NCBI GenBank assembly: GCA_963666365.2
Contig: CAXXNF010000002.1
Span: 736,001-800,000 of the forward strand
Length of the DNA stretch: 64,000 nucleotides
Source: Syntrophales bacterium
Lineage (GTDB): Bacteria; Desulfobacterota; Syntrophia; Syntrophales; UBA2210
Direction of reading: 5' to 3'
The notes under the pieces are model-generated. The model was not told the origin of the DNA and ran no database searches. It saw only the letters and a program-made list of their open reading frames with translations. Within the stretch, counting starts at the first letter, position 1. Every line of letters starts with the position of its first letter. A program made the position numbers and the translations under genes. Shown here piece by piece: positions 1,676-19,385 of the stretch.

Positions 1676-3367
1676 TTATGGCGTGCTTCTTTTGAGTTCC
1701 TCTTCAAGAAGCACTCTTCTCAATACCTTGCCGGCGCCGCTCATGGGCAGGTCGTCTCTGAATTCTACAGTTTTGGGCACCTTGTAAGGCGAGATGCCCT
1801 GTTTTGCCCATGCTATTATTCCGTCGGCCGTGACGGTATCCTTGAACGGGGCTTTCGGTACGATAAAGGCCTTGATGACTTGCTGTCCGGCAGGCCGATG
1901 ACGGCAGCTCTGTCCACGGCTTCATGGCGGCAGAGAAAGAGTTCCACTTCTTCGGGGAATACACTGAACCCCGATGTATTTATCATTTCCTTCTCCCTGC
2001 CAAGAAAATAGAGGTAGCCTTCTTCATCGAATTTACCCATATCCCCTGTATAGACCCATCCGTCGATAAGCGAGTCGTTCGTTTCCTCCGGTTTGTTCCA
2101 GTAGCCTTTGAACACGGCAGGATGATTAAGCGCGATCTCGCCCATTTCTCCTACCAGAACTTCCCAGGTTCTGTCCTCGAACGATACCATTTTGATGCCG
2201 GCGCCGGGATTGGGAATGCCCTGCCAGCCTTGTCCGTACTTGTGCTTGTCAAGGAGGATGAAGGTAGCGAAGGTGTCGGTTTTGGAAGGACCGTAGGCGG
2301 TTTCCACCAGAATACATCCGCCGGTGTCATCCTTCCAACGCTTTGCAATTTTTTCGGTAATCTGAACCCCGAAGCTGGTGGTCAGGCAGAGCTTAAGGGT
2401 TGATATGTCATAATTCTTCCTGTCCGGATGATCCATTATGCCGATATTCATGGGAACAGTAGCCTGAAAATAGTTGATATTATAGCGTTCGAGTGCCTGC
2501 ATGGCAGCTACGGGATCGAACATGACCATGAGGACCTGTGTGCTTCCCAGTGCGATCTGCCTGTCCACGCTCGATAGCATGCCGGCAATATGAAAGGTCG
2601 GAAGAATCGAGAGGCAGGAGATCGAATACCCACGGTATCTGGCAAATTCAAAACCAGCCTTGATTATGGTTATCATGTTGGCTATTTTAAAAAGTTTCGC
2701 GCCGTGAGTGAGGATGGCGCCCTTGGGAAGACCGGTAGTACCGCCCGTATACTGAAACTGGACTATGTCGTCGAGATCAACGTCGATCTGCACGGGTTCC
2801 GCCGGGAACTGCGACATGATATCCATGAATTCGATGGGCCCCTCATGGGTCATTTAGGAAACTCCATCATGGGGATCAGATTCATGGTTGTTGTGTCCGG
2901 GAGAAAATCATGCATACTGGTGACAACAACCTTTCCCAGATTTCATTCCTTACCGGCGACCGCAGCAACGGGATACAGAAGATCGAGAGAGACAACCGCC
3001 TTTGCGCCTGAATCCTGGAGTTCATAGGCCAGTTCCCATTCTTTGAAGACAGGACTGCAGGGAACTATTACTCCGCCCATCTTGTTGATGCCGTAGTGGG
3101 CAATATGATACTGGGGCAACTGGGAAGAAAGAGTGCAATGCGATCAACTTTTTTCAATCCTGAATCGACAAGAAAACGGGCGAATCGTTCGGACATGTCG
3201 TTCAGTTCGCCGTAGGTGACCTTTCTGCCGTAAAAGATCAAAGCAGTCCTGTCAGGATACTCCTTTGCATTATCGCGTAAATATTCAAAAATGGGTTTTT
3301 TATCTTTTGTGTATAGAGTTTCCTTGGGAAGAAAGTCAGGCCAACTTTTCATCCATATCTTGTCCAT
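1676..3367 (-). pseudogene. Long-chain acyl-CoA ligase pseudogene
   Basis: RBS GAGGAGG then ATG at 3367 (MDKIWMKSWP). Frameshift in a C-run at FLPSCP/QYHIAHYG and an internal stop. Core in ORF 1816-2853 (YTGGTTGLPKG, YTGDMG). A further frameshift precedes the C-terminal VIKAFIV...SPYKVPKTVEFRDDLPMSGAGKVLRR, ending TAA at 1676. Confidence 0.88.
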
Positions 3368-5850
3368 ATGAGCCTCCTCTTCCAATTCCCTGACATTGCC
3401 GGGCCATTCAAAAAAAAGCAGTTTTTCCGTTTCCTGATGGTTGATATTCTCCAGTGGTTTGTTGAATTTCTGGGCATAGAGGGTAAGAAAATAGTGGACC
3501 AGGAATGGAATATCCTCTTTTCTTTCACTGAGGCTCGGCACATTGATGGGAAAAACGTTGAGCTGGTAGTACAGATCCTGGCGAAACCGGCCGATTTCGA
3601 CCTCCTTCGCAAGATCACGGTTGGTTGCTGCCAACAGGCGAAAGTCGGATCTCAACGTTTCGTGCCCTCCCACACGTTCGAACTCTCCGCTCTGAAGCAC
3701 CCGCAGCAGTCTGACCTGAGTCTCCATAGAAATATCGCCGATTTCATCGAGAAATATCGTTCCACCGTTAGCCAGCTCGAATCTTCCCATGTGCCGTGTC
3801 GTTGCACCCGTGAATGCGCCATTTTCATGGCCGAAGAGTTCGCTGGAGATAAGGCTTTCAGACAAGGCGCTGCAATGGACTCGTATGAAAGGTTTTCCGT
3901 TGCGGGGACTATGACGGTGAATCGATCGAGCCACCATTTCCTTGCCGACGCCGGTTTCTCCAAGAATCAAAACGGTGGCATCGGTCTCAGCCACCTGATC
4001 TCTCTGGCTGAATACCTTCATGATGGCCGGGCTTTTTCCTATAAAGTCTTTAAAATGAATTGTCTCGATATATTCCTTTTCGTAATATTGCTTTTCTATC
4101 GCCTGTTTTTCGTACAAGTCATTCAAGGCCTTCCAGGCGTCGGCATTATCTATTGCAATGGCAGCCTGTGCTGCAAAAATAATTCAGAATGTCCAGATCC
4201 GACTCTCTGAAGGCGCTGCAAAACAGCCTGTTGTCGTGGGATAACACGCCCACGGTTTTATTACGAATGGTCATGGGAACGCATATGCACGAACGAATTG
4301 AGTCGACGCCTGCGGAACCAGGTTCATTTCGAATATCCAATTCTCTGATTCGACCCTTGCCCGATTTTATTGTCTCATCAATCAGTCTCATTGACATCAC
4401 GAATCCCGGATTGCGGATGTCTTCTCCGGTAAGGTTTTTTGCGGCCCTTAGAACAATATTTTTCCTGGCATCGTTTTCCACAAGAAATATCGCACCCTGT
4501 TCCGTCCACGTAATTCTATTTATCGTCGAAATAACAGGTCGAGACAGATCCCTGTAATTGCGAATCGTAGTTAATTCCTGGCTTAATCGCAAAATTTCCT
4601 CGAGAAGATTTTTACCGTACCGAAGGTCCTTTACAAGGGTCGAATATCATCGGGCACCAGCGCATCATTGAACGAATAGAGACCCCGCGCTGCCGTTTCT
4701 ACCCACTCCATGGCCTTCTTCCGCTTGCCGAACAGAAGATATTCCCTGGCCAGTTCTACCTTTGATTTTGCCAGCTCTATCTGATGGCCGCAGCTTTCAA
4801 GATAGGAAACGGATCGTTTGAGAGCATGTATGACATGTGTGGTCTCTGCACCTTCCTTCCTTTGTTGCAGTGTGCTGTAGCGATAGGCAACGCCCTTCAT
4901 CAGCAAATTGCCGCTTTCAATGGAATAGTGAATATCCTCTTACAGGGACATACCATCAACATGGGAAAATGTTCCCTCCTCCATCGCCCAAAAGATTAAC
5001 ATCCACAGGGCGCTGAACTTGACCGTCATGCAGACCTTTCCACTGAGGTCGAAATATTTCTGCAGGGCTGAAAGCGCCCGCTTGTGATCATTGAGCAGAT
5101 GCGAGGCATAGCATAGCAATGCCAATCCTCCAAGATGCGTATAGGTGTTGCGGCTTTTTATTGAATCTTCCAGAGACTCTTCAATGTAATGCAGGGCTTC
5201 CCCGGGTCGGTGAAGCTCAAGAAGCAAATAGCCTATCTATGTTCCCGCCAGCCCTATAACGGAAAAATTGCCGATATTGCGGCCATGCTCCCGAATGGCA
5301 TGGAGCATACCCAGCGCCTGAGAATACAGTCCCGTATGGCCCACACAGACTCCTGCGGTTAAGGCGGCTGAAAGAGGCAGGCTGTCTTTGGGAGAGGTGT
5401 CTTTCACATCTGGGACGAGGGTCTCGTAATTCTGAACGACCTCTCGATAATGTCCCGACCAGTAATTGAAAAACATGCCGAAAATTGTTGCCGATCGTTG
5501 AATGGTAGGATCGTCTATTTCCCGGGCCAATGCCCACACTTGCTTGAAATGGTGCAGCGTCGGGCGGTAAAGGGAACGAAGCCACTCGCTTTTGCCCAGA
5601 TGCATCTCAAGAAAGCCCAAAGAGTTTTTTTGCCCACAAGCTTTTGCGCGGCCCATGGCCTCTCGTATGACTGAGATTACCCGAGTCGGGTCTGTGTTAT
5701 CGGCGGAAACTTTGGCATATTGGAGCGCCGCTTCAATAAAAAGCTGATCGGCTTCATGCCCTCGGATTATTTTGAGGTCATCAATCACCTTATCATAATA
5801 GAATGGTACTGGCTGACTTCTTCCTTGGATGCGATCTTCTTTTGACTCAT
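3368..5850 (-). pseudogene. Large sigma54-dependent activator (helical N-terminus + GAF + AAA+) pseudogene, HTH deleted
   Basis: Fragments 5237-5788, 4940-5227, 4631-4906, 4146-4592 (GAF-like: SIRSCICVPM) and 3368-4126 ([37 protein letters not shown]). Stops and frameshifts lie between them; the sequence ends abruptly after RELE. Confidence 0.87.
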
Positions 5851-6195: not shown

Positions 6196-7752
6196 TTAAA
6201 ACTTAGTGGGCCAGTTGGCGAGTTTATGTTCGCTTATTCCCCTTGTTTTGGAGAAGTCCTGCGATTGTTGCAGCACCCTTATGATATGGTTCCGTGTATC
6301 ACGGGGATCGATTATATCATGGATAAAGTGCAGGCCGGCGGCGCCGTAAGGGTCAGTTCCCTCGGCCATCTTTGCTACCCGCTCCTCCTGTTCCTCCGGT
6401 GTCTTCGCCGGCGTGCCCCCGAAGACCACGTTTGCCGCAATTACCGGATCGACGAAGCTCATTTCCGCCGTAGGCCATGCGACAATTGAATCGGCGCCGC
6501 TGCCGGAGCCGCACATGTTCCAAAACGCCATGCCGTAGGCCTTTCTCACAATTACGGTAATCTTGGGTACCGTCAGAAGTCCCAGGGCGTTCATGAAATT
6601 CATGACGTGGGCACCTACCCGCTTACGCTCCGCCTCTCTTCCTACAAGAAATCCCGGAATGTCTTCCATGAAGACAAGGGGAATGTTGAAGGAATCACAC
6701 AGGCAGAGAAAACTCATGACTTTTTCGATGCCGTCCGTATCCATGGCGCCTGAGTTAAACCGGGGCTGATTCGCCACGATGCCGATCACCCTGCCGTCGA
6801 TGCGGGCAAGCGTGGTGATGACCGTCTGCCCGAAGAGGGGCTTGATAGGAAAGAGGCTGTTCGTGTCGACAATGCACTTCAAAAGCTGGTTCATGTCGTA
6901 GGTGCGGTTTCTTTTTTCCGGCAGCAAATCCAGAATGTGGGGCATGTTGGTACCGGAGTCTTCCGGCACGGGCGCCCTGGGGGGGAGTTCCTCGTTATGC
7001 GCGGGCATATAACTTAGATAATCACGAATAATTTGCATGCACTCGTCTTCGCTTTCGGCCGCGCGATCGGCCATGCCCGTCACCCGGGAATGCAGCTGCC
7101 AGCCCCCCAGTTCCTCGTCGGTGATGTTCTCACCCAGGGCGATTGAAAGAATGCGGGGACCAGATACACCCATAGCAGTACCTTTTACCATGACGACAAA
7201 ATCCGAAAGACAGGCCATCCAGGTCGGTTCACCGTAACATTTGCCCAGCACAGCCGTAACCAGCGGCGTTTCACGAACCCGGCTCATCATCTGAAGAAAG
7301 GTAGTGCGACCGCCGCCGCCGTAGGAGGCGAGTCCCCCCGATCCCATGATATCGGGCATCCGTGCCCCGCCTGCCTCGCCAAGGTAGATAACAGGAAATC
7401 CGTGTCGAATTGCTGTTTCTCTCACATCGTGTTCTTTTCGTCCGGCAATGCGGCTCGACGTTGCGCCCAGGACGGTAAAGTCTGCGGCAAGTACGGCGAC
7501 GGGCCGGCCGTTAATCATTCCATAGCCGCCGACTTTGCTGTCGGCAGGGCTCTTATCTTCCATTCCCGGCATGTCTGAGTGATTCAACATGCCGACTTCA
7601 GCAAATGAACCATCATCGACAAGTCTATCGATGCGCTCACGAGCGGTGTATTTACCCTCAGCATGCTGTTTGGCAATCTTTTTTTCCCCGCCCATCATAA
7701 GGGCCTTTTTCTTACGGCGGCTCAATTCCTCCATCTGCTGTTCAAAGGGCAT
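6196..7752 (-). CDS. Acyl-CoA carboxyltransferase (methylmalonyl-/glutaconyl-CoA decarboxylase alpha or PCC beta type)
   Basis: GKYTARERIDRLVD, GGARMPD, TTLARIDGRVIGIVANQP, EDIPGFLVG, RKAYG. RBS AAGGAGG before ATG 7752 (MPFEQQ). Confidence 0.92.
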   Translation of the reverse strand: MPFEQQMEELSRRKKKALMMGGEKKIAKQHAEGKYTARERIDRLVDDGSFAEVGMLNHSDMPGMEDKSPADSKVGGYGMINGRPVAVLAADFTVLGATSSRIAGRKEHDVRETAIRHGFPVIYLGEAGGARMPDIMGSGGLASYGGGGRTTFLQMMSRVRETPLVTAVLGKCYGEPTWMACLSDFVVMVKGTAMGVSGPRILSIALGENITDEELGGWQLHSRVTGMADRAAESEDECMQIIRDYLSYMPAHNEELPPRAPVPEDSGTNMPHILDLLPEKRNRTYDMNQLLKCIVDTNSLFPIKPLFGQTVITTLARIDGRVIGIVANQPRFNSGAMDTDGIEKVMSFLCLCDSFNIPLVFMEDIPGFLVGREAERKRVGAHVMNFMNALGLLTVPKITVIVRKAYGMAFWNMCGSGSGADSIVAWPTAEMSFVDPVIAANVVFGGTPAKTPEEQEERVAKMAEGTDPYGAAGLHFIHDIIDPRDTRNHIIRVLQQSQDFSKTRGISEHKLANWPTKF

Positions 7753-7896
7753 GGTAGAAGCTTCCTCCTTCTTTGGTGTAGTGTAGGTAATGATACAAAA
7801 ATAATTATGGGGAAAATCCCCATTGTGCGATATCAAAGTATGAGGGTACACTTTCCATAGATCAGGTCCCCACCGGGGTCAATTGGGTGGTGTGTC

Positions 7897-9240
7897 CTAT
7901 CCCAGGATTCCGATAAAGACGCCGCCTGCGATGGCGGCGCCGATGGCGCCGGCCACGTTGGGTCCCATGGCGTGCATCAGGAGGAAGTTCTGCTTGTTTT
8001 CCTTCTGTCCCATCACCTGAACGACCCGTGCCGACATGGGGACGGCAGAGACGCCCGCCCCGCCGATCATGGGATTGATTTTCTCTTTCAGGAAGAGATT
8101 CATGATCTTTGCCAGAATCACGCCGGCGGCGGCGGCGCTGGCAAAGGAAACCACGCCGAGAACCAGTATGAGGAGCGTGTCCACCCGAAGGAAGTTTTCC
8201 GCCGACATGGTGCCGCCGATGGCAAGGGTCAGAAAGATGGTCAGCATGTCGATGAACACCGTCTGCGCCGTCTTGCTGAGCCGTTCAACCACCCCGCTCT
8301 CGCGAAAGAGATTGCCCACCATGAAACAGCCGATCAGGGGCGCCGAGTCGGGCACGAAGAGGATCACCACGATGGCGGTCACGATGGGGAAGAGGATCTT
8401 TTCCAGCTTCGACACCTTGCGAAGCTGGGGTTTCATGTAAATGGACCGCTCCTTCTTGGTCGTCAAAAGTTTGATAACCGGGGGAAGGATCAGCGGCACC
8501 AGGGCCATGTAGGAATAGCAGGCCACGGCGGTGGCGCCGATAATATGGGGCGCGAGCCGGGCCGTCACATAGATCGTGGTGGGGCCCTCGGCCCCGCCGA
8601 TTATGCCGATGGAACTTGCCTCAGGAAGGGTGAACCCACAGAAAATTGCCAGAAAAAAGGCGAAATACACGCCGAACTGCGCCGCCGCACCCAGGAGCAG
8701 CGTCTTGGGATTGGCCAGCATGGGGCCGAAATCGGTCAGCGCCCCCAGACAGAGAAATATCAGCGGGGGAAGAATCTGCCACATGATGCCGAAGGCGAAA
8801 AAGCGAGAAAGAAGCCCCACGGGCCGGGTGGGAATCTTCTCCTGATCCGTCTGCTGTGTCGTCACGATGACCGCCACCACATCGCCCGCATCGACTCTCT
8901 GGTTCTCCGTCACCCTGAACTTCGCGACCCGCCCGTAGACGGGGGAAGTGATCTCCCCGGCATCGGTCGCGACAATGGCCGCGCCGCACTCGAAGCTGTC
9001 CCCCCGCTCCACGGAGAGCCGGCTGACCATTCCCGGACTCGGGGCCCTGAGCGTGTATTCGTAGTCCATGAGCCCCCCCATGGGAAGATTGACCAGCATG
9101 ATGCCGAAGCCGATGGGCAGCAGCAGAAGGGGCTCCATCTTTTTGCCGATGGCAAGATATATGAGGACGCAGCCGATGATGATCATCAGGACGTTGCCCC
9201 AGGTAATATACTGAAAACCGCTTTCTAATAAACCGAACAC
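7897..9240 (-). CDS. Na+-translocating decarboxylase beta subunit (OadB/MmdB/GcdB family), atypical
   Basis: EPLLLLPIGFG, LGALTDFGP, LLGAAAQFG, IGIIGGAEGPT, YSYMALVP, NPMIGGAGVSAVPMSAR, NFLLMHAMGPNVAG; insertion at about aa 62-127. Confidence 0.95.
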   Translation of the reverse strand: MFGLLESGFQYITWGNVLMIIIGCVLIYLAIGKKMEPLLLLPIGFGIMLVNLPMGGLMDYEYTLRAPSPGMVSRLSVERGDSFECGAAIVATDAGEITSPVYGRVAKFRVTENQRVDAGDVVAVIVTTQQTDQEKIPTRPVGLLSRFFAFGIMWQILPPLIFLCLGALTDFGPMLANPKTLLLGAAAQFGVYFAFFLAIFCGFTLPEASSIGIIGGAEGPTTIYVTARLAPHIIGATAVACYSYMALVPLILPPVIKLLTTKKERSIYMKPQLRKVSKLEKILFPIVTAIVVILFVPDSAPLIGCFMVGNLFRESGVVERLSKTAQTVFIDMLTIFLTLAIGGTMSAENFLRVDTLLILVLGVVSFASAAAAGVILAKIMNLFLKEKINPMIGGAGVSAVPMSARVVQVMGQKENKQNFLLMHAMGPNVAGAIGAAIAGGVFIGILG

Positions 9241-9263
9241 GTGTGTACCTCCCGGAATCCGCG

Positions 9264-9401
9264 TTACTCGCTTCTCGATTTTGATATCTTTTCAGTGACG
9301 ACCTTTGTCACCCATACCGTAAATGACAAGAGGATGAGGAGAATAAATACCAGGCCGAAACCGCCGACGGCTATCTTGAGCGCCAATCCCATATCCACCA
9401 T
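9264..9401 (-). CDS. 45-aa single-TM decarboxylase gamma/delta-like subunit (OadG/MmdD family); absent from ORF track
   Basis: MVDMGLALKIAVGGFGLVFILLILLSFTVWVTKVVTEKISKSRSE*. Resembles the G-x-x-x-VF-x-x-L-x-x-L N-terminal pattern of OadG. RBS AAAGGA; 23 bp upstream of the beta gene. Confidence 0.75.
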   Translation of the reverse strand: MVDMGLALKIAVGGFGLVFILLILLSFTVWVTKVVTEKISKSRSE

Positions 9402-9660
9402 TATTTTAGTATCCTTTCCCGGGGAACTCACAATATGGAAGCACCTGAATTAGTGTTGTCCCGATACATCTCGATGGGGGTTCCGGCACCTAATTCCTGG
9501 TGGTTTCATATGCATTTAAAAAATAATTGTCCTTATGGTACGTGCCAAATAGCGAAAACAGAAATTATCTCTATAATTCAATATGATATGACTATACAAT
9601 TTGTCTCGCACGAGAATGATAAAACGACAATTTATGAACACACTATATTTCGTGATATTC

Positions 9661-11184
9661 TCAATATTTCCCTCCGTGATCGATTTTGACCTGCGCTCTG
9701 TCTGTTTCTCCCTCAGTCGTTCGGGGAAGTCTCTCTACAAACAGAACATATTTCGGTTTTTTGTAGCGGGCGATTTTTGTCGTTACATAATCGATCAATT
9801 CCTGAGGACTCAAATCGGCGCCGGCTTTGGGTACGCACACTGCCTTTATCGCTTCCCCCCAGGTCTCGTCGGGAACACCAATGACACAGACATCTTCGAT
9901 GCCGTCATGGCTGAGAATCGCCTTTTCAACTTCTGCAGGGTACACGTTTTCTCCGCCCGGTTTGATCAGCTCTTTTTGCGCCTTGCGCTTGACATACCAG
10001 AGATATCCCTCTTCATCAAAACGGCCTATGTCTCCCGTATGGTGCCATCCGTTTCTGAAGGTATAGGCCGTTGCCTCTTCCATGTTCCAATATCCCTGAA
10101 ATACTGAAGGTGACTGTACGCAGATTTCACCAGGTTCTCCCAGGGGTACTTCGTTGTCATAGTCGTCGAAAAGTGAAACCCGGGCAAGAAGTGCGGGCTT
10201 TCCGGCGCTGCCCGGCCTGTCAGCGGCATTGCCACCCGTTACCGGAATTGCCTCGGTCTGCGCGTAGCCGCTGTAAAATACCGCATGCGGCGCGAGTGTG
10301 AGGATGGTGCGCACGCTCTCCGGATCCTCAAGGCCGCCGATACTTCGAAGACTGGAAAGATCACAGGGTGTTTCTTTATGGGCATCGATGAGCATTTTCA
10401 ATATGGGTGCAAATGATCCGAAGGTGGTCACTCTTTCGGCTTCAATGAGTTTCAGGGCCAGAGCGGGGTCGAAACGATCGACGATGACGTTTTTCGCTCC
10501 CCCATGAAGAATTGCCATAGAGGTTGAAAGCGCGGCGATGTGAAAGAGGGGAAGGATGCAAAGGTGACACGCATCTTCGCCCATGCGCTCCTGCGCGAGA
10601 ATCTGCATGTTGGTGGCGATTACATTCCCCTGACTCAGGAGGGCGCCTCGGGGCGTCCCTTCAACGGCCGCAGTATGGATAATTACATATCCCGCTTCGG
10701 CGGGAATGTCATATGTCGTGTCGGCGCCTTTTTTTCTGTAAAGCGTTTCAAAGGGTTGAAAGGAGGGAAGATCCGATTGTGCTGACATCGCATACCACAT
10801 TTCTATTGATGCGACGTTTTCCGCTGCTTCGGCGGCTGCGTTCAGATACTCCGATCCCGCAAAAAGGGCCTTGGGTGTGCAGTCCTTCAGGATATGGGAG
10901 ATTTCGTTACACTGAAAGCGCCAGTTTACGGGAACGACTATTGCGCCTATCTTTGCCGCGGCCCCGTAGAGAATCATGAAGTAATCCGAATTGTGAGCGA
11001 CTACGGCAATTCGATCCCCCAGTTGAATTCCCTGCTCGACAAGCCCCGCAGCACAGTGATCACATTTCATCTTGTAATCGCGGAACGTCATGCGCAGGTC
11101 TCCATAGACCAGTGCATCCCGATCTGCATGAAGCACGGCATTTCTGGATATCACGTCGTAAACAGTAAAGTCGCGAAGTCCCAT
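9661..11184 (-). CDS. AMP-dependent acyl-CoA synthetase (variant HTAAVxG subfamily)
   Basis: LPLFHI, GYAQTE, WHHTGDIGRFDEEGYL, IKPGGENVYPAEVE, IARYKKPK; RBS AAGGAGG. Confidence 0.92.
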   Translation of the reverse strand: MGLRDFTVYDVISRNAVLHADRDALVYGDLRMTFRDYKMKCDHCAAGLVEQGIQLGDRIAVVAHNSDYFMILYGAAAKIGAIVVPVNWRFQCNEISHILKDCTPKALFAGSEYLNAAAEAAENVASIEMWYAMSAQSDLPSFQPFETLYRKKGADTTYDIPAEAGYVIIHTAAVEGTPRGALLSQGNVIATNMQILAQERMGEDACHLCILPLFHIAALSTSMAILHGGAKNVIVDRFDPALALKLIEAERVTTFGSFAPILKMLIDAHKETPCDLSSLRSIGGLEDPESVRTILTLAPHAVFYSGYAQTEAIPVTGGNAADRPGSAGKPALLARVSLFDDYDNEVPLGEPGEICVQSPSVFQGYWNMEEATAYTFRNGWHHTGDIGRFDEEGYLWYVKRKAQKELIKPGGENVYPAEVEKAILSHDGIEDVCVIGVPDETWGEAIKAVCVPKAGADLSPQELIDYVTTKIARYKKPKYVLFVERLPRTTEGETDRAQVKIDHGGKY

Positions 11185-12073: not shown

Positions 12074-13309
12074 TTATTTCCAGCTGTATTTCGTTAAATC
12101 GGGACAGGGATATTCGCCGATAACATTCTGACGATTATCGTTCAGTCTGATCAGAACTGCCGTATCCTGCCCGAATCGTTTCTTTTCGTTAAATGTTACA
12201 GGCGGTCGAAGGCCCATCATGTCATAACCTTTGATCGTTTGTATAGCATCATAGACAGCTTTGCCATCAACATTGCCAGGTCCTACTTTATGCGCCGCTA
12301 TACGTATTGCCTCGCAGGCGATAAGGGCCATCCCCGCGGTCATTGCATGTCCTTCTGGTGGAAATCCCATTTTATCACGCCCATTTTTCTTAAATATTTC
12401 CAGAACCTTCGGGCATCGATTCGGCCACTCAGCTACAGGCCAGATATTGGAAACTATATAGGTGTTTCTCGCCAGAGGGCCGACCATATCTAAAAGGACG
12501 CCCGGCACTATGGCATAGCAAAGACCGATATCTATCTGGTCGATCATGCCTAATTTTTCCATTTCCTTAAGTACGACCGCAAAGGCATTTTGATACATGC
12601 CGCCAAAGGTGAAATCAACACCCTTTTCCTTCAATCTCAATAATTGAGCACTCACATCGGTAGGTACATAGGGAATAAACTCTTCACCGATTATTTCTAC
12701 ACCCTTCGATTCAATGTAGGCCCTTGCTTTAGGTGTTATGGATGCACGGCCATAGGCGACTTCCCATGTGAGCCAGGCAAAGCGCGGTTTTCTGTTAAGT
12801 CCTTTTTTTGGCCAGATATTTGCGAGATACCAATCGACCCATAATCCCAATTCATTCACGTAGGGGGATGTCGGTGAAAATGTCCATGAAGGAAGTTTTG
12901 TCAGTTCATCATCGCTGCCCCCCTCAACATTGATTATTTCTTTTTTGATATTCCATTTTTTCAGCGCCAGAGCAACGCCGGTGGACTGGCCTACCATAGC
13001 GACCACTTTGTCCTTTCCCTCGGACATTTGTTTGAAAGCGGTCATTGATTTTGCTGCATCGGATCCTCCATCTTTCCAGATGGGAACAATTTCGACTCCA
13101 TTCAGGTCCATGTACTTGTTTGCAAGTTCGACACCATCGAGAAATCCCGGGTTATTGGCAACCTGTGTTCCACCATAGGGTCCGGTTATATGAACCAGAT
13201 GGCCGAGATAGACCTTTGTCTTGTCGGCTTGGGCCATACCCGTGATACCTGCAATAAGGAACAAAGAGAAAAAAGTAAAAAACATTTTATTCAATACCCA
13301 TTTATTCAT
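12074..13309 (-). CDS. LivJ/K-like ABC substrate-binding protein
   Basis: Signal peptide, ITGPYG, AQLLRLKEKGVDF; last gene of the liv-type operon. Confidence 0.88.
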   Translation of the reverse strand: MNKWVLNKMFFTFFSLFLIAGITGMAQADKTKVYLGHLVHITGPYGGTQVANNPGFLDGVELANKYMDLNGVEIVPIWKDGGSDAAKSMTAFKQMSEGKDKVVAMVGQSTGVALALKKWNIKKEIINVEGGSDDELTKLPSWTFSPTSPYVNELGLWVDWYLANIWPKKGLNRKPRFAWLTWEVAYGRASITPKARAYIESKGVEIIGEEFIPYVPTDVSAQLLRLKEKGVDFTFGGMYQNAFAVVLKEMEKLGMIDQIDIGLCYAIVPGVLLDMVGPLARNTYIVSNIWPVAEWPNRCPKVLEIFKKNGRDKMGFPPEGHAMTAGMALIACEAIRIAAHKVGPGNVDGKAVYDAIQTIKGYDMMGLRPPVTFNEKKRFGQDTAVLIRLNDNRQNVIGEYPCPDLTKYSWK

Positions 13310-13366
13310 GATTCCCTCCTTTTGTTGCGGATTTATTTTAGGCTTGTTCCAGATAATTCAGAAAGT

Positions 13367-14161
13367 CTAGCCAAGCCACCTCTTGCGCCTTTTATAATGC
13401 TTCACGTCGCGATAGCTCTTCTTTTTTCCCACACCGGACAATCCGAGATAAAATTCGCGCACATCTTCGTTCTCTTTGATTTTATCGGCAGGTCCGTCAA
13501 GGACGATGCGCCCGTTTTCCATGACATAGGCATAATCAGATACGGTAAGTGCGATATTGGCATTCTGTTCTACCAGTAGAATGGGAAGCTTCTCCTCCTG
13601 ATTGATTGTTTTGACTATCTGAAAGATCTCTTTCACGATTAAAGGGGCCAGCCCCAAAGATGGCTCGTCAAGCATGATTAATCGAGGACGCGCCATAAGA
13701 CTCCGGCCTATCACGAGCATCTGCTGCTCCCCGCCGGAAAGATATCCGCTCACTGCCTTCTTTAAATCAAAAAGGCGGGGAAAGTACTCATATACCTGGC
13801 GTAACCTTTTCTTTACATCCTGCCTGCTTCTATTCAGATACGCACCCAGAAGAAGATTTTCTTCAACATTCAGATGCGCATACAGACGCCTTCCCTCAAT
13901 TACCTGCCTTATACCGTAAGAGGCAATTTCTTCTGGACCCAGTTTCTCGATCCGGTGTCCGGTATAATCGATGCTTCCATGGGTGACTTCACCCAGTTCA
14001 ACGCCTAATATCCCCGATATTGCTTTGAGCGTGGTGCTTTTCCCGGCGCCGTTTGCCCCGAGGAGGGAAACAATCTGACCTTCTTTTACGGAGAGACTTA
14101 CTCCCCGCAGGACGAGAATCACTTTCGAATAGACGACTTCAATATTATTAACTTCCAGCAT
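13367..14161 (-). CDS. livF: ABC ATPase, LivF family
   Basis: GANGAGKST, LSGGEQQML, LDEPSLGLAP, LVEQN. Confidence 0.93.
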   Translation of the reverse strand: MLEVNNIEVVYSKVILVLRGVSLSVKEGQIVSLLGANGAGKSTTLKAISGILGVELGEVTHGSIDYTGHRIEKLGPEEIASYGIRQVIEGRRLYAHLNVEENLLLGAYLNRSRQDVKKRLRQVYEYFPRLFDLKKAVSGYLSGGEQQMLVIGRSLMARPRLIMLDEPSLGLAPLIVKEIFQIVKTINQEEKLPILLVEQNANIALTVSDYAYVMENGRIVLDGPADKIKENEDVREFYLGLSGVGKKKSYRDVKHYKRRKRWLG

Positions 14162-14190
14162 GGTATCCCTCCCGACGAATTCTTTTTACC

Positions 14191-15246
14191 TCAGTATGGA
14201 AACGGCCACAGGCGGAATGTCGAAAGTGTTATCTGCCATCGATGAAACAGCCCTCGCGGCTCAAATACAAGAAAGAGAAGAATTACGGCGCCAAAAAAAA
14301 TCTGAACAAATCCAGCGACAGCCGATCCTTCAAGGGCCGGAAAAACACTGCCGAGCCAAGGAGCAAGGAAGAGAACAAGCTGGTGGAGTAACTTGAGAAA
14401 GAATACCCCCATAATTGCGCCTGTGATTGTGGCTCCTCCAATAATAAGCATTCCCAACATCCAGATGGAATCCATAAGCGTGAATTGCTCGACGGTAATT
14501 ATTCCCTGGTAATGGGCAAGCAGTGATCCTGCTATACCGGCATACAAGGACGATAGAAAAAAGGCGAGCACTTTGGTTTTAAATACATTAATTCCCATAA
14601 ATGCTGCTGCCAGATCATTGTCCCTAACGGCTATAAAGGATCGCCCTGTCTTTGTTCTCATCATATTGTTCGTGAGAAACACAATGACAACGACAAAAGT
14701 CATTGCAAGATAATAAAATCTGAGTTCACTGTCGAAGACAAAACCGAAGAAAGAGACTTCTTCGGCGGGCAGACCCGATATCCCCTGAGTTATATTGCCT
14801 CCGTGAAGGATAATCCACATGATGATGAAGTGAGCTGCCAGTGTGGTCACGGCAATGTAAAATCCCCTGATTTTCAGCGCCGGCATTGCGACGATTATGC
14901 CAAGAATTCCACTTCCCAAAGCTGCGCATGGAAGAGTGAGCCAGAAAGGCAATCCGACGTGAGTGGAAAGTGCTGCGCTCACATAGGCGCCCACAGCCAT
15001 GAAGGCAGCATGCCCCATGCTTATCTGTCCGGTAAATCCAACAATAATCTGCAGCCCCAGAACGGCAATAACAAATATTCCCATATTTATCGCGACATCA
15101 AGAAGATAATTACCTGCGATCAGCGGAAACAGGCCGAAGAGGAAAACAAGAAGCAGTATCAGCATAATCCAGCGAAATCCGGTTCGTACCAGAGCGCTAT
15201 CCTGCTCATATGTTTCATCAAATGTTCCGCAGGGTTTTTTCAGCAT
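14191..15246 (-). CDS. livM: ABC permease, LivM family
   Basis: GQISMGHAAF, GFYIAVTTL, GRSFIAVRDNDLAA. Confidence 0.92.
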   Translation of the reverse strand: MLKKPCGTFDETYEQDSALVRTGFRWIMLILLLVFLFGLFPLIAGNYLLDVAINMGIFVIAVLGLQIIVGFTGQISMGHAAFMAVGAYVSAALSTHVGLPFWLTLPCAALGSGILGIIVAMPALKIRGFYIAVTTLAAHFIIMWIILHGGNITQGISGLPAEEVSFFGFVFDSELRFYYLAMTFVVVIVFLTNNMMRTKTGRSFIAVRDNDLAAAFMGINVFKTKVLAFFLSSLYAGIAGSLLAHYQGIITVEQFTLMDSIWMLGMLIIGGATITGAIMGVFFLKLLHQLVLFLAPWLGSVFPALEGSAVAGFVQIFFGAVILLFLVFEPRGLFHRWQITLSTFRLWPFPY

Positions 15247-15248
15247 TT

Positions 15249-16136
15249 TTATACCCTTTCTATTCTTTCATAGCCAAAAAGCCCGTATGGCCTCAGCACC
15301 AGAGCAATGAGCAATACCACGTAGGGTGCGACCTCGGAAAAGCCTCCACCTACATAGGGATCAAGATAACCGCTGCCTAGGGCCTCTGATAATCCAATAA
15401 TGATTCCGCCAATCAACGCACCCACTACTGATTCCATGCCGCCTAGTATCACGACTGCAAGAGCCTTCATTCCCAGTCCGTTTAAAGAGGTAAAGCTTAC
15501 CCCGTAGAGAGAGCTCATCAAGATTCCACCGACTGCCGCAACGAGAATAGCCACAAACCAGGATACGACAAAAATAGAACTTACCCGTATTCCTTCGCTT
15601 TGAGCCAAAGTGTGATCCTCTGCGGTACCTCTCATTGCCAGCCCGATTTTGGTTTTCTGGAAGAAAAGGACAAAAATTAAAAAACAAAGGGCACAGACTA
15701 TAAAATTTAGAAGCGACTCTGAAGAAAGGACGACTGTGCCGAGATGAATCCGGGCCGATGAAACTATTTCCGGCAACAGTCTCCCCGGTCCCGGCCAGAA
15801 GAGGACAACGGCACCGCTGAAAAGCTCACCCATGGCGATTGTTGCCATTACCGCCGCCATCAGGGGTTGCCCGGTCAAAGGCTGCAGTATAAGTCGCTGG
15901 ATGATAAATGCGAGCAAAGCGATGCAGAAAATGAGTATCGGCAAGGCAAGCCATGGAGGCATATTCCATTTAACAAGAAGCTGCCATAACATGAAAGCTG
16001 AAAATGCCACTAATGGTCCGTGAGCGAAATTAAAAATAGAAGAGGATTTGTAAATTATTACGATGGCAAGTGCCATCAGGGCGTACACACCGCCTGTCAG
16101 AATGCCGTTCACGAATATCTGAGAAAAAAAATCCAT
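15249..16136 (-). CDS. livH: ABC permease, LivH family
   Basis: NGILTGGVYAL, FNFAHG, GLAMRG, LRPYGLFG. Confidence 0.92.
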   Translation of the reverse strand: MDFFSQIFVNGILTGGVYALMALAIVIIYKSSSIFNFAHGPLVAFSAFMLWQLLVKWNMPPWLALPILIFCIALLAFIIQRLILQPLTGQPLMAAVMATIAMGELFSGAVVLFWPGPGRLLPEIVSSARIHLGTVVLSSESLLNFIVCALCFLIFVLFFQKTKIGLAMRGTAEDHTLAQSEGIRVSSIFVVSWFVAILVAAVGGILMSSLYGVSFTSLNGLGMKALAVVILGGMESVVGALIGGIIIGLSEALGSGYLDPYVGGGFSEVAPYVVLLIALVLRPYGLFGYERIERV

Positions 16137-16138
16137 TT

Positions 16139-18130
16139 TCAATCTCCTGCCAGTGTTGTTTTGATTTTGAGATCCGTTTTCATTGTTCCAGTGCGTCCAT
16201 CCCGATACTTGACATCAGCCTTAATGGATATGTGTTCTTTATTCTCAAAGGCGGCATTGATTAGATTACTGTATTTACTTTCCAAAAATTCGCGGCGCAA
16301 TTTTCTTGTTTTGGTCAATTCTCCCTCGTCGGCATCGAACTCCTTGTGCAGGAGTGTATAACGAGACACCTTTGCATTTTCGGGAAGAGTCGTATTTACC
16401 TGAACCACGTCTTTTTCAATAAGGTCATACACTTCTTTCTTCTGGCTGAGATCGACAAATGTAGTGTAGGAAATATGATTCTTTTCCGCCCATTTCCCTA
16501 CATTATCGAAGTCAATTGTAATAAGAGCGAAAATGAAGGGGCGCTCCTTGCCGCCTATGACCAGAACCTCCTTGATGTAGGGGCTGAATTTAAGGCGATT
16601 CTGGATGTAGGTAGGGGAATATCGAGTTCCATCTTTCAAAGACAGCATCTCTTTCATGCGATCATAGACGATGAGATGGCCATCTTTATCAATAATGCCG
16701 GCATCACCGGTCTTGACCCAACCGTTTTCCAGCATGGCTGCGGTTTCATCCGGCTTTTTGTAATAACCTGAAAACTTGGCATCTGCCTTCAGATATATCT
16801 CGCCCTGATTCGTTATTTTGACTTCCACACCAGGCACAGGTATCCCGCTGGTTCCGGGCTTGATTAATTCCCTATGAGTTACAGCAGGATTGAGCTCGGT
16901 TAATCCGTAGGCGTCTCTGATTCTCACACCAATAGCCTTATACCAGCGTATCACGTCCGGCCCCAGGGCGGAGCCGCCCGTCAATGCGTAGCGGAGTTTG
17001 CTTAACCCAAGGTAATCCCGGATATGATAGAGACAAAGGCCATTAGCGAGCCAGAAGAGAGCACGAAGATAAAGGGGGGGCTTCGTGCCATGTGTTCTTT
17101 CATATTCTGAATATCGATACCCTATAGGGAGGGAGACGTTATACAGAAATCGTCTGATCGGCCCTGTATCGAATATCTTCATTTGTACCTGCGAAAGTAT
17201 TCCCTGCCACTGCATTGGACTCAACAGGCATGTACGGGCGCCAATCTCACGTAGGTTTTGCATGACCGTTTCCGGTTCTTCCGGGAAATTCACTTGAGTC
17301 CGGAAGGCGACCCAGCCTGCGATCATCAATTGTTCGGAGATCCAGGCAGGCGGCACGTAGGAGAGGTAATTGTCCTTTGGAGCCGGTGGGGCGACGGCCC
17401 CCCAGCGTATAGCTCCTTTAATCAGATATTCGTGACTCAACATGGCGCCTTTAGGAAGTCCGGTTGTGCCGGACGTATAGCAAATCACCGCAATGTCTTC
17501 ATCGTTTCCTTCTTCCACCGATTGTTCGAAAAAGTCAGGATTCTCCTTTTCAAAAGATTTTCCCTGTTCGATAAGATCCTTGTTCTCCAGGAGCCAGGGA
17601 TCATCCTTATGGCGCACCATTCCCCGGTTATCCCAGTAAATGATTTTCTTTATCTTTGGGATCTCCTTTTTTATTTCTAGAAATTTATCTGTTTGCTCCT
17701 GATCCTTTGAAAAAACAAGGACGCTGTCGGAGTCGTTTACAAGATACTGCAGATCCGAAGGCATTGCATCTATATAAAGTCCTACAACGGAAGCCCCCAT
17801 TGATTGCACGGCTATTTCCGCCCAGTACCATTCAGGATCATTATCTCCAATTATGCATACCTTATCCCCCCTGTTGATCCCCAGGCTTTTCAATCCAAGT
17901 GCCATATATTTAATATTTTCGTAAACCTGTGCATTGGTAAAACTATTCCAAATTCCGAGATCTTTCTTTCGCATGCAGATTTCATCGGGATATTCAGTGC
18001 ATGTATCTTTGATGATCTTGGGGAGTGTATCACGGATGCCTTCGACGCACCTTCGGTAATAATCCGAATTAAATCCAGAATCCTTCAATGCCGGCATACA
18101 CTGTTCCAGAAGTGCTTGGGTATCAATCAT
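16139..18130 (-). CDS. Long-chain fatty acid--CoA ligase embedded in ABC operon
   Basis: YTSGTTGLPKG, YGLTE, WVKTGDAG, GELTKTRKLRR; ATG overlaps the livG stop (ATGA). Confidence 0.92.
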   Translation of the reverse strand: MIDTQALLEQCMPALKDSGFNSDYYRRCVEGIRDTLPKIIKDTCTEYPDEICMRKKDLGIWNSFTNAQVYENIKYMALGLKSLGINRGDKVCIIGDNDPEWYWAEIAVQSMGASVVGLYIDAMPSDLQYLVNDSDSVLVFSKDQEQTDKFLEIKKEIPKIKKIIYWDNRGMVRHKDDPWLLENKDLIEQGKSFEKENPDFFEQSVEEGNDEDIAVICYTSGTTGLPKGAMLSHEYLIKGAIRWGAVAPPAPKDNYLSYVPPAWISEQLMIAGWVAFRTQVNFPEEPETVMQNLREIGARTCLLSPMQWQGILSQVQMKIFDTGPIRRFLYNVSLPIGYRYSEYERTHGTKPPLYLRALFWLANGLCLYHIRDYLGLSKLRYALTGGSALGPDVIRWYKAIGVRIRDAYGLTELNPAVTHRELIKPGTSGIPVPGVEVKITNQGEIYLKADAKFSGYYKKPDETAAMLENGWVKTGDAGIIDKDGHLIVYDRMKEMLSLKDGTRYSPTYIQNRLKFSPYIKEVLVIGGKERPFIFALITIDFDNVGKWAEKNHISYTTFVDLSQKKEVYDLIEKDVVQVNTTLPENAKVSRYTLLHKEFDADEGELTKTRKLRREFLESKYSNLINAAFENKEHISIKADVKYRDGRTGTMKTDLKIKTTLAGD

Positions 18131-18939: not shown

Positions 18940-19385
18940 AGAGAGACACTCCTTCATCAGTAATTTTGTGTGCCAGAAAGACTCAGCAATTAAGACTTCT
19001 TTATTTCAGGGTACTCTTGGGGGGTACGGCTTATTACTAGTCATCCAAAGCCCTACACACTTCTAAGGCAATAAGAAAGATATGTCAAATGGAAAAACAA
19101 AGCCTTTACTCGACGCCCGCTTTATTCTGACGATTGAATTTCATTTTAAAAAGGACATTTCTTAATAATATGAAGATGTTTTTTCTTGATTGTTGTTTTT
19201 CTTTGTGCTAGTTATCTGGAAACCTTTGACAGAGCGCTTTTGCGGCTTACACTGATTTTGCAGCTGCGACAGCACTGCATTTAATGTTCCCATGTATGAT
19301 ATTCCCGGTGAAACCGGGATGTTAAGCATAACACAGGCATCTGAAGTACCAACTTTATTATGCAAAGGAAAGGGGGACGTAAGGT

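Follow-up and report, generated by a model that had tools for sequence, protein, structure and literature searches.

In syntrophs that degrade benzoate, fatty acids and probably hydrocarbons, decarboxylase pumps serve to conserve the little energy gained, and to our knowledge everything known of how these pumps work comes from the enterobacterial OAD and a few firmicute Gcd and Mmd enzymes. GcdB and MmdB, the beta subunits of the latter, have about 375 amino acids and merely a short loop between helices T2 and T3'. In OadB of Salmonella and Klebsiella (6IWW, 6IVA; PMC7274780) the same T2-T3' site holds a soluble domain of four helices, domain E, so that the claim made in a preliminary description of the present locus, that OadB is normally membrane-only, does not hold. 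For the Gcd and Mmd pumps (GcdABCD of Acidaminococcus and Clostridium symbiosum, MmdABCDE of Veillonella), PMC7145394 describes a beta subunit and a small membrane anchor that work with an acyl-CoA carboxyltransferase and a free biotin carrier bearing an (E)AMKM motif, and reports GcdB and MmdB as proteins of 35-39 kDa.

The beta subunit and its gene neighbourhood

The window analysed here is a stretch of 64,000 nucleotides from a Syntrophales bacterium, in which the following features form the locus:

6196..7851, minus strand: carboxyltransferase, alpha-like, without a biotin domain (Carboxyl_trans, 357 bits)
7892..9402, no strand assigned: 1,511-bp gamma-beta cassette, duplicated elsewhere in the genome (repeat comparison)
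7897..9240, minus strand: beta subunit (carboxybiotin decarboxylase / ion pump), 447 aa (Pfam, TIGR01109, AF2, Foldseek)
9264..9401, minus strand: mini gamma subunit, 45 aa from the ATG at 9399-9401, the longest ORF reaching 9431 (weak OAD_gamma)
9661..11184, minus strand: AMP-forming acyl-CoA ligase, upstream of gamma-beta on the same strand (AMP-binding and AMP-binding_C)

The ORF at 7897-9240 (-) encodes an OadB/GcdB-type beta subunit of a biotin-dependent decarboxylase pump. It matches Pfam OAD_beta (PF03977) with 501 bits (E 2.1e-150, cut-off 31.6) and TIGR01109 Na_pump_decarbB with 487 bits (cut-off 190.6) over positions 1-354 of 354; in the Pfam match, residues 16-445 are aligned to profile positions 2-348 of 349, which leaves about 80 extra residues in the protein. 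The AF2 model of the whole subunit (pLDDT 93.3) finds 6iww_A as its Foldseek match (E 5.5e-27, TMq 0.77, TMt 0.82), followed by CitS chains, and presents the CitS-like fold with two helical hairpins known from Salmonella OadB, with which the sequence aligns at an E-value of 3.9e-111 and shares E40, N55, T148/D149, Y227, Y229, R304, N373, G377, S382, R389 and N412 (Salmonella numbering). Sequence and fold thus file it in the OAD_beta family, though as a variant. It is not OadB proper: its score of 408 bits against the profiles NF012019-21 lies below their cut-offs of 820-824, the match falling into two pieces that skip the insert; helical domain E is missing; and the adjacent alpha subunit is an acyl-CoA carboxyltransferase, not OadA.

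The partners of this beta subunit share the subunit logic of the Gcd and Mmd pumps. The carboxyltransferase has no fused carrier, unlike the alpha subunit of Salmonella and Klebsiella OAD, and reaches 408 bits against TIGR01117 mmdA, below the cut-off of 998.8; its true start is likely M34, near position 7752, since the match of a relative begins at residue 34. Carriers are encoded elsewhere in the genome as two 71-aa EAMKM proteins, each a bare domain, while GcdC has an Ala/Pro linker and an N-terminal anchor (PMC7145394). As in Salmonella, the beta subunit is accompanied by a single-helix gamma, but this one has 45 aa, matches OAD_gamma weakly and over the TM helix only (24.4 bits, below the cut-off of 27) and lacks the C-terminal tail that anchors alpha in the classical OAD. 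The acyl-CoA ligase matches an NCBIfam long-chain-fatty-acid--CoA ligase subfamily below cut-off.

The gamma-beta cassette is present a second time in the genome (G000:C2, L007 9461-10971, inverted) with 99.93% identity and unrelated flanks, the single mismatch falling at position 7896, outside both coding sequences. The neighbours of the second copy include a glutaryl-CoA dehydrogenase of the non-decarboxylating type (NF045552, 732 bits) and a carboxyltransferase resembling GcdA. These two identical insert-type copies are the only OAD_beta genes of this genome, and the insert variant must therefore be the working pump.

A survey of homologues and their neighbourhoods, which the preliminary description had proposed, found the same architecture at 80 loci, counted at species level and labelled either Syntrophales/"Deltaproteobacteria" or Dehalococcoidia; they cover two phyla, and their insert hardly varies in length. 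A gamma homologue lies upstream of beta in all five of the relatives' loci and in 66 of the 80 species-level loci, and a separate BCCP-like gene within 4 kb of beta in 52; beyond gamma, carrier and carboxyltransferase, no conserved partner gene was found beside beta in the 80 related loci. The architecture, first put forward as unusual and as a candidate for an undescribed variant, is thus common, while our literature searches found no description of it: the insert-bearing beta subunit is a widespread, apparently undescribed sub-family. A cultured Syntrophus is among the carriers of an insert-type beta.

A biotinyl fold without the biotinyl lysine

The insert, its linker and the position of the lost lysine are located as follows:

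8821..8862, minus strand: conserved linker T127..Q130-T131-[DN]-Q133..P137-T138-x-P140 into T3' (clade alignment)
8821..9069, minus strand: lysine-less biotinyl-fold insert, residues 58-140, 83 residues (Pfam, BLASTP, AF2, structure matches)
8956..8958, minus strand: Gly95 codon, biotinyl-lysine position (BLASTP alignments to own-genome BCCPs)

A two-piece alignment to 6iva_A places the insert where Salmonella has its variable domain E (residues 62-119), to which the insert has no sequence similarity, an all-beta biotinyl fold standing in place of four helices. The preliminary description had delimited it at 8860-9057 (-), which corresponds to residues 62-127 of the 447-aa protein, and had recognised in it a biotinyl/lipoyl fold without the biotin lysine. 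The profile searches bear this reading out. Within the whole beta subunit, Biotin_lipoyl (PF00364) matches residues 64-125 over profile positions 3-73 of 73 with 24.1 bits (cut-off 22.1), and the 66-aa stretch by itself passes both Biotin_lipoyl (29.8 bits) and Biotin_lipoyl_2 (34.3 bits, cut-off 29.8). The AF2 model of the insert (pLDDT 96.2) is continuous and free of helices and superposes on the P. horikoshii BCCP 2d5d_A with Z 11.9 and an rmsd of 0.8 Å over 66 residues at 35% identity. All 17 Foldseek matches with E <= 0.001 are biotin carriers or biotin-carboxylase carrier domains, and the likeness to the biotinyl fold is far beyond chance. Among carriers of known structure (P. horikoshii 2D5D/5GUA and the transcarboxylase 1.3S subunit 1DD2) the rmsd ranges from 0.8 to 1.3 Å and the identity from 31 to 35%, with a common twofold AP-x-G / GD pattern. 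BLASTP against the genome's own two 71-aa carriers gives 34% identity (E 3e-11) and 25% (E 3e-7). The weaker genomic matches of the insert are small BCCP genes. In the ESM Atlas the best scores, 0.75-0.80, stayed below the counting level and provide only leads, to OAD_beta fragments and small lipoyl/biotinyl clusters.

The same fold, likewise lysine-less, is found in the adaptors EmrA (4TKO), HlyD (5C21), AcrA (2F1M) and MexA (1VF7), which the insert matches with Z 10.0-11.4 (up to 11.6 among adaptor lipoyl domains), and there are weak Pfam matches to HlyD_3 and BSH; HlyD_3 reaches 28.1 bits with the 66-aa stretch (cut-off 22.2) but spans only about 30 of its residues. In the adaptors, however, an alpha-hairpin splits the domain, and the matches run over split chain ranges with an rmsd of 2.2-2.8 Å. 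The continuous insert does not show the adaptor layout, in which an alpha-helical hairpin lies between the two barrel-sandwich halves and beta-barrel/MP domains come after them. Since the BCCPs are closer in sequence and superpose with lower rmsd, we rejected an adaptor origin. The insert very probably derives from a biotin carrier domain: BCCPs are nearest to it by sequence as well as by structure, and in many related loci beta has a BCCP gene as its neighbour.

The insert differs from these carriers in lacking the Met-Lys-Met hairpin and in being embedded in a loop of a membrane protein. The modifiable lysine at the hairpin tip, which the (E)AMKM motif provides in biotin carriers, is absent: in both own-genome alignments the biotinyl lysine falls on Gly95 and is followed, after the hairpin, by a deletion of four residues. 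Of 121 clade members, 108 have glycine at this position, as do 71 of the 79 species loci covered. The insert thus has the fold of a carrier but is not one. Lys91 was considered as a cryptic biotin site and rejected: position 91 lies four residues before the aligned lysine position without an MKM context, carries Lys in only 54 of the 121 clade members and is Ala in the present protein.

An insert of this kind could be an accidental in-frame fragment of a carrier gene, caught in a permissive loop, functionless and slowly decaying. The loop is indeed permissive, as 112 cluster representatives have anything between 0 and 104 residues there (MAFFT-based count), and the insert is less conserved than the core, with a mean column identity of 0.65 against 0.90. 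The substitution rates tell otherwise: in a comparison of 35 genes, ten pairs with dS < 0.7 gave dN/dS values of 0.09-0.21 for the insert and of 0.008-0.07 for the core, so that the insert, although evolving faster, is under purifying selection. Its length is almost the same throughout the two phyla, the model is confident, and the Gly and Pro residues defining the fold are conserved together with the motifs MDYE and QT[DN]Q..PTxP, all of them invariant or nearly so. Within the linker, T127, Q130, T131, Q133, P137, T138 and P140 are each kept in 118-121 of the 121 clade members. A neutral relic is on these grounds very improbable, and of the earlier proposal that the insert is the relic of a carrier fusion only the origin from a carrier stands. 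The faster evolution of the insert relative to the core fits a decoration, without showing what the insert binds.

Membrane side of the insert and the altered pocket

The insert is connected to the membrane part through two helices, for which the sides given below follow from the alignment with Salmonella OadB:

8737..8814, minus strand: kinked helix T3'/T3, residues 143-168, back to a putatively cytoplasmic T169/D170 (model helices 143-153 and 157-168)
9070..9132, minus strand: helix T2, residues 37-57, from a putatively cytoplasmic E36 to N51 at the putative periplasmic face (aligns to Salmonella residues 41-61)

For the Salmonella protein, the supplementary table of Xu et al. (eLife 2020, PMC7274780) assigns N55 of T2 to the periplasmic face and T148/D149 to the cytoplasmic one; the N-terminus of hairpin 1 is periplasmic (eLife 2020, PMC7274780), and E40 belongs to the Na+ cavity open to the cytoplasm (eLife 2020 main text, PMC7274780). 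The sides themselves were assigned in that paper from the positive-inside rule, from conservation and from the tail of gamma. In our alignment N51 corresponds to N55, E36 to E40 and T169/D170 to T148/D149, and N51 stands 7 residues ahead of the insert. By homology to these published locations, the insert would face the periplasm, across the membrane from biotin ligase, carrier and carboxyltransferase. A domain outside the cell could neither carry biotin nor dock a cytoplasmic carboxyltransferase. The short loops on the side of E36 and of the TD pair contain K/R residues when read from the sequence (GKKME, KKER..RK).

An older model of Klebsiella OadB from PhoA/LacZ fusions reportedly places the N-terminus in the cytoplasm; if it were right for T1-T2, the insert loop would be cytoplasmic, and the insert could then serve as a pseudo-carrier, a docking point on beta for the real carrier or the carboxyltransferase, or be the vestige of a beta-carrier fusion once biotinylated. 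The fold and the nearest relatives, which are true biotin carriers, would suit such a role, and another anchor for alpha would be welcome where the mini gamma has lost its anchoring tail. The flanking residues of the Salmonella structure nevertheless make the loop periplasmic, the insertion site is that of domain E, the hairpin is short and without its lysine, and genes for real carriers are present in this genome and, in most of the related loci, close to beta. We consider this explanation scarcely credible, and the docking part of the earlier suggestion of a structural or docking module is not supported; the structural part survives as the leading interpretation.

The clade is also set apart by its pocket, in which one codon is of particular importance:

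8587..8589, minus strand: Glu218 codon GAG, at the Salmonella/Klebsiella Asp203 position (alignment)

Five pocket residues differ from Salmonella OadB, and likewise from the Gcd and Mmd enzymes, namely Asp203->Glu, Ala226->Cys, Gln237->Leu, Asn311->Thr and Ser419->Ala, all of them found across the clade. Glu218 replaces the essential Asp203, the Na+ ligand at the tip of hairpin 1, for which D203N/E in KpOAD leave 0% activity with loss of pumping (eLife 2020 Supplementary file 1B, PMC7274780). All 121 clade members have both the insert and this Glu, which is also present at 75 of the 78 species loci covered, whereas among 111 other cluster representatives 103 have Asp and none Glu. The other residues with strong mutant phenotypes (E40, Y229, N373, G377, S382, R389 and N412) are retained as E36, Y244, N389, G393, S398, R405 and N428, each in 121 of 121 clade members. 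Given the changes Q237L, N311T and S419A, Na+ is a putative coupling ion here; since apolar residues replace polar Na+ ligands, as in H+-selective rotor rings, H+ translocation may be envisaged.

These substitutions raise the possibility that the insert is a functional periplasmic module that co-evolved with the ion site, gating or tuning the release of ions at the outer face or binding a periplasmic partner or ligand, with a coupling ion or stoichiometry unlike that of the classical Na+ pumps. The strict association of insert and Glu218, the replacement of polar cavity residues of known phenotype (Q237L, S419A, N311T), the invariant linker motif beside T3' and the maintenance of the insert in two phyla at dN/dS of about 0.1-0.2 all point in this direction. 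The association, however, may simply reflect shared ancestry within one clade. Of the 150 cluster representatives listed, 49 were scanned with Pfam (those with at least some 400 aa, plus the fragment P0212), and Biotin_lipoyl was detected only in P0122, with 21.8 bits, just under the cut-off, which implies that profile scans alone under-detect diverged inserts; P0122, with its weakly similar barrel insert, retains Asp, so that insert and Glu are separable. Moreover, the domain is attached to scaffold helices, which do not move in elevator-type transporters, rather than to the transport core, and in the 80 related loci beta has no conserved neighbour, apart from gamma, carrier and carboxyltransferase, that could be such a partner. 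A role as periplasmic proton antenna was also considered, and is weakened by a 2026 preprint, which has the chemical proton of Vibrio OAD coming from the cytoplasm and so removes one reason for such an antenna. We hold a co-evolved module of this kind to be unlikely.

A probable structural role outside the membrane

The explanation that we prefer, with a probability of roughly 60%, is that of a periplasmic domain derived from a BCCP, never biotinylated, acting as a rigid structural ectodomain on the beta scaffold. A carrier-derived domain would have been accommodated at the variable T2-T3' site, with its hairpin shortened and Gly in place of the biotinyl lysine. Projecting from the outer face, it would never be biotinylated and would take no part in carboxyl transfer, which the separate 71-aa EAMKM carriers would perform. 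There it would buttress or cap the beta trimer from outside, in the manner of Salmonella helix alphaE4 and of the lipoyl-like domains of periplasmic adaptors. The latter serve as packing modules of oligomeric assemblies in the periplasm, and alphaE4, in whose place the linker of the insert stands, touches the trimer interface. It is the attachment of the domain to two scaffold helices flanking this interface that makes the rigid-ectodomain role the most likely one, although we infer it with less support than the membrane side. The insert at the same time marks a clade with a remodelled ion/biotin cavity (D203E, A226C, Q237L, N311T, S419A). That its linker is invariant and its association with Glu218 perfect may point to more than passive support.

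A further-reaching proposal, which we regard as speculative and rather doubtful, is that the BCCP-derived ectodomain, taken together with a pocket that has Glu for Asp203 and the changes Q237L, N311T, S419A and A226C, defines a distinct class of pump in syntrophs and Dehalococcoidia, whose coupling would be unlike that of the classical Na+ pumps (e.g., H+, or a stoichiometry suited to reversible operation near equilibrium) and whose ectodomain would be needed for assembly or for gating at the outer face.

For annotation, a Biotin_lipoyl match within a beta subunit should not be taken to indicate carrier fusion. The insert provides a clear example of a cofactor-carrier fold reused in a role that needs no cofactor, and the pump version of Syntrophales and many Dehalococcoidia differs twice from those described, through a recycled carrier domain that would serve as an extracytoplasmic module and through an altered pocket. 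Glu in place of the 'essential' Asp203, a substitution lethal to the Klebsiella enzyme, stands here alongside four other pocket changes, which offers a natural set of compensating substitutions for probing the working of the ion site and the identity of the pumped ion.

The inserted domain and its conservation

The beta subunit, the membrane part of a carboxybiotin decarboxylase and ion pump, holds the stretch that was first noticed:

7897-9240, minus strand, beta subunit, 447 aa
8860-9057, minus strand, stretch first noticed, beta residues 62-127

Beta matches the NCBIfam model TIGR01109 (487 bits against a cut-off of 190.6) and Pfam OAD_beta (E = 2.1e-150) and, since profile positions 2-348 of 349 are spread over its residues 16-445, about 80 residues are surplus. 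In the whole protein, residues 64-125 match positions 3-73 of the 73 of Pfam Biotin_lipoyl with 24.1 bits (cut-off 22.1). When the 66-residue stretch was scanned by itself, Biotin_lipoyl (29.8 bits) and Biotin_lipoyl_2 (34.3 bits, cut-off 29.8) were both above cut-off, as was HlyD_3 (28.1 bits, cut-off 22.2). The insert as a whole (residues 58-140) is related by BLASTP to the two 71-aa EAMKM carriers of the same genome, with 34% identity to one (E = 3e-11) and 25% to the other (E = 3e-7); each alignment sets Gly95 of the insert against the biotinyl lysine and opens a gap of 4 residues after the hairpin. The AF2 model of full-length beta (mean pLDDT 93.3) is all-beta at residues 60-127, and a separate model of the insert, for which 50 sequences were aligned, reaches a pLDDT of 96.2 and superposes on the P. 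horikoshii BCCP with a Z of 11.9 and an rmsd of 0.8 Å over 66 residues (35% identity). All 17 Foldseek matches with E ≤ 0.001 are biotin-carrier chains or biotin-carboxylase carrier domains. Profiles, genomic carriers and models thus confirm the claim of the preliminary description that this beta contains a biotinyl/lipoyl-like domain without the biotin lysine; chance is ruled out, and the insert is a well-folded, carrier-derived domain.

In the clade formed by the query and the 120 best hits of a word-indexed search (n = 121), alignment columns of the insert have a mean identity of 0.65, those of residues 141-447 one of 0.90. Nei-Gojobori dN/dS ratios were calculated on 35 intact genes; in the 10 pairs whose dS is under 0.7 for insert and core alike, the insert has ratios of 0.09-0.21 and the core 0.008-0.07. 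Residues M58-D59-Y60-E61, G70, F83, D93, G95, P100, G103, R104, G119, T127, Q130, T131, Q133, P137, T138 and P140 are invariant or nearly so. These low ratios and fixed residues show that the domain is kept by purifying selection with no decay, and it is very improbable that it persists as a functionless relic.

Insertion site, membrane side and proposed role

Beta aligns with Salmonella OadB (6iva_A, E = 3.9e-111) in two pieces, residues 7-57 with Salmonella 11-61 and residues 141-443 with 120-427, so that the insert stands in place of Salmonella residues 62-119. In the available part of the study of that enzyme (eLife 2020, PMC7274780), this region is domain E, four helices between T2 and T3' which are solvent exposed, weakly conserved and missing from some OADs, and whose helix alphaE4 enlarges the trimer contact by 250 Å2 at each interface. 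The same part places Glu40 within the cytoplasm-open Na+ cavity and the N-terminus of hairpin 1 in the periplasm, while Supplementary file 1B locates N55, in T2, at the periplasmic face and T148 and D149 at the cytoplasmic one (PMC7274780). Their counterparts in beta, E36, N51 and T169/D170, are each kept in 120-121 of the 121 clade members. As to which side of the membrane the insert faces, a point raised in the preliminary description, homology to these locations predicts the outer, periplasmic face, because N51, 7 residues ahead of the insert, would be periplasmic and, on either side, only one transmembrane helix lies between the insert and a cytoplasmic residue. An older fusion-based topology reportedly placed the N-terminus inside. 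The topology of CitS is N-in. Compared with beta, CitS has one extra N-terminal helix, according to the available text of PMC7274780. Taken together, the two points argue for N-out in beta as well. To assign sides, that paper itself relied on the positive-inside rule, on conservation and on the gamma tail (PMC7274780, available part).

A domain outside the cell would have no access to biotin ligase, carrier or carboxyltransferase. The docking module suggested initially, which would have to work in the cytoplasm, was not borne out and seems most unlikely: the insert is predicted on the wrong side of the membrane for a carrier or dock, and the genome encodes true carriers:

L007 (locus of the second beta copy) 14300-14515, 71-aa EAMKM carrier, 3.3 kb from that beta
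L004 (another locus of this genome) 1492-1707, second 71-aa EAMKM carrier

Within flanks of at most 4 kb around beta, carrier tblastn gave matches in 56 of 80 related species-level loci; four of these matches were the insert itself, and a separate carrier-like gene is present in 52/80. The gene order gamma, carrier, beta is found in many Dehalococcoidia loci, and this adjacency offers a simple origin for the insert, through a copy of the local carrier gene placed in frame into a permissive loop.

T2 and T3' are part of the trimer-forming scaffold, and the barrel attached there, with its invariant linker, most probably forms a rigid cap or buttress round the three-fold axis on the outer side; alphaE4, which touches neighbouring subunits in Salmonella, points in the same direction. 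To this overall reading, an outer-face, carrier-derived domain capping or bracing the trimer, we give a probability of about 0.6. Fold, insertion site, lysine loss, purifying selection and clade signature are its demonstrated steps, the outer-face location and the role being inferred. Lipoyl-like domains have a packing role in periplasmic adaptors, to which the proposed function may be compared.

Gene neighbourhood and distribution

Beta lies in the following neighbourhood:

9661-11184, minus strand, acyl-CoA ligase, first in order
9264-9401, minus strand, mini-gamma, between ligase and beta
6196-7851, minus strand, carboxyltransferase, 551 aa, after beta (TIGR01117, 408 bits, below cut-off)
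L007 9461-10971, second gamma-beta copy (G000:C2)

Mini-gamma has 45 aa, with a transmembrane helix and without the alpha-binding tail; a gamma homologue precedes beta in 5/5 relatives' loci and in 66 of the 80 species loci. The gamma-beta cassette (7892-9402) is repeated 1.7 Mb away on the same contig with 99.93% identity over 1,511 bp. Its sole mismatch, at 7896, is outside both coding sequences, those of the two betas being identical; the flanks are unrelated, and the repeat breaks off sharply, on one side at the start codon of gamma and on the other 5 nt past the beta stop, a pattern suggestive of gene conversion or a recent duplication. After the second copy come a glutaryl-CoA dehydrogenase of the non-decarboxylating type (NF045552, 732 bits, cut-off 470) and a carboxyltransferase of 589 aa; the 71-aa carrier lies downstream and is convergent, a layout as expected for a glutaconyl-CoA decarboxylase. 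As the same cassette stands beside two carboxyltransferases, one pump module appears to serve two decarboxylases.

Elsewhere in the window, a branched-chain-type ABC uptake system (12074-18957, minus strand; binding protein, two permeases, two ATPases), which includes a 666-aa AMP-binding ligase, adjoins the decarboxylase operon and may import and activate its substrate. In ORF 3068-4126 (minus), a sigma-54 AAA+ activator domain is fused to ~60 residues from the start of an AMP-binding enzyme. ORF 1816-2853 (minus) covers AMP-binding profile positions 153-384, and just upstream there is a separate 148-aa ORF with a GAF domain (4146-4592, minus); the region could be a frameshifted or rearranged regulator and ligase. 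At 3-1464 on the plus strand, the window opens inside the gene of a glycyl radical enzyme, of which the C-terminal portion is left (Gly_radical; PFL2-3 family, 158 bits); next comes a radical SAM activase that has ferredoxin-type clusters.

A word-indexed search with beta scored 8000 candidates, of which the best 120 have 429-455 aa and 74-98% identity to beta. By alignment all 120 carry an insert of 80-89 residues, and a precomputed PF00364 match was counted in 96. Where given, their names are "sodium ion-translocating decarboxylase subunit beta" and their sources Smithellaceae, Smithella, Syntrophales, Desulfosalsimonas or "Deltaproteobacteria" MAGs. Among 60 relatives' genomes, 23 have the full-length 83-aa insert within a frame of 377-517 aa (22/36 in the same family, 1/24 in other families of the order). 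When a single genome of each species was scanned for a pattern, 185 matches emerged, of which 85 were confirmed and 80 kept as loci. Thirty-seven are titled Syntrophales, Syntrophaceae, Smithella, Syntrophus, Syntrophobacterales, Desulfobacterales, Thermodesulfobacteriota or "Deltaproteobacteria", including the complete genome of Syntrophus buswellii DM-2, and 43 Dehalococcoidia or other Chloroflexota. The 64-77% identity to the query beta across the two phyla suggests transfer between them.

S. buswellii DM-2 (NZ_CP175563.1) also encodes a second, divergent paralogue at L026 41-1162, some 2.7 kb away from its insert-type beta; this protein is 32% identical, and it has a short loop and Asp in its GGADGP motif. 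In Dehalococcoidia loci L064-L092 the order is mini-gamma, a 64-aa-class biotin carrier directly upstream of beta, and insert-type beta; in Dehalococcoidales inserts the QT[DN]Q linker is shorter by three residues (QT---P).

Representatives of 50%-identity clusters gave 5887 hits at E ≤ 0.001. Among the best 150, the 112 with both flanks have 0-104 residues at the insertion site, and only three have inserts resembling that of the query: P0212, a fragment (38% identity over 72 aa), P0122 (36% over 39 aa, E = 0.001) and P0127 (31% over 48 aa, E = 0.003). Many 450-630-aa representatives (P0123-P0223) carry N-terminal extensions of ~90-260 residues with no Pfam match, some of them maybe miscalled starts or chimeric gene calls (e.g., ABC_tran or DUF892 with partial beta); the extension of P0160 contains a CarboxypepD_reg-like domain, as would be consistent with an extracellular N-terminus. 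The preliminary description had called the architecture unusual and undescribed. With 80 species-level loci it is widespread; no description of a biotinyl-like domain in a beta subunit was found in the literature searched, subscription journals lying mostly outside it.

The ion pocket of the clade

Glu218 of beta, at the tip of hairpin 1, aligns with Asp203 of Klebsiella and Salmonella OadB. This position is Glu in 121/121 clade members; the other representatives have Asp in 103/111 and Glu in 0/111. Of the 80 species loci, 2 do not cover the position; 75 have Glu, 2 have Ala and 1 has Ser, and Asp is absent. In the available part of the Salmonella study, D203N/E leaves 0% OAD activity and the pump is lost (eLife 2020, PMC7274780, Supplementary file 1B). 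Four further positions have changed, while E40, Y229, N373, G377, S382, R389 and N412 are retained.

Table. Pocket positions changed in the clade (Salmonella numbering)
A226: Cys in 121/121 of the clade, Cys in 0/111 others; adjoins Y227, which contacts the hairpin tip
Q237: Leu or Ile in 121/121, Gln in 101/110 others; Q237A has 15% activity
N311: Thr in 119/121, Asn in 71 others; called essential in the available text of PMC7274780
S419: Ala in 121/121, Ser or Thr in 82 others; S419A has 10% activity; hydrogen-bonds the hairpin tip

An ectodomain with a more active role, tied to this remodelled pocket, seems to us unlikely, though less so than a dock or a relic. P0122 has a barrel-like insert yet Asp at the 203 position, so insert and Glu are separable. 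Since this genome has no OAD_beta gene beyond the insert-type copies, the insert/Glu variant must be the working enzyme here, and it is the Glu203 pocket, present throughout the clade, which is the chief source of added interest.
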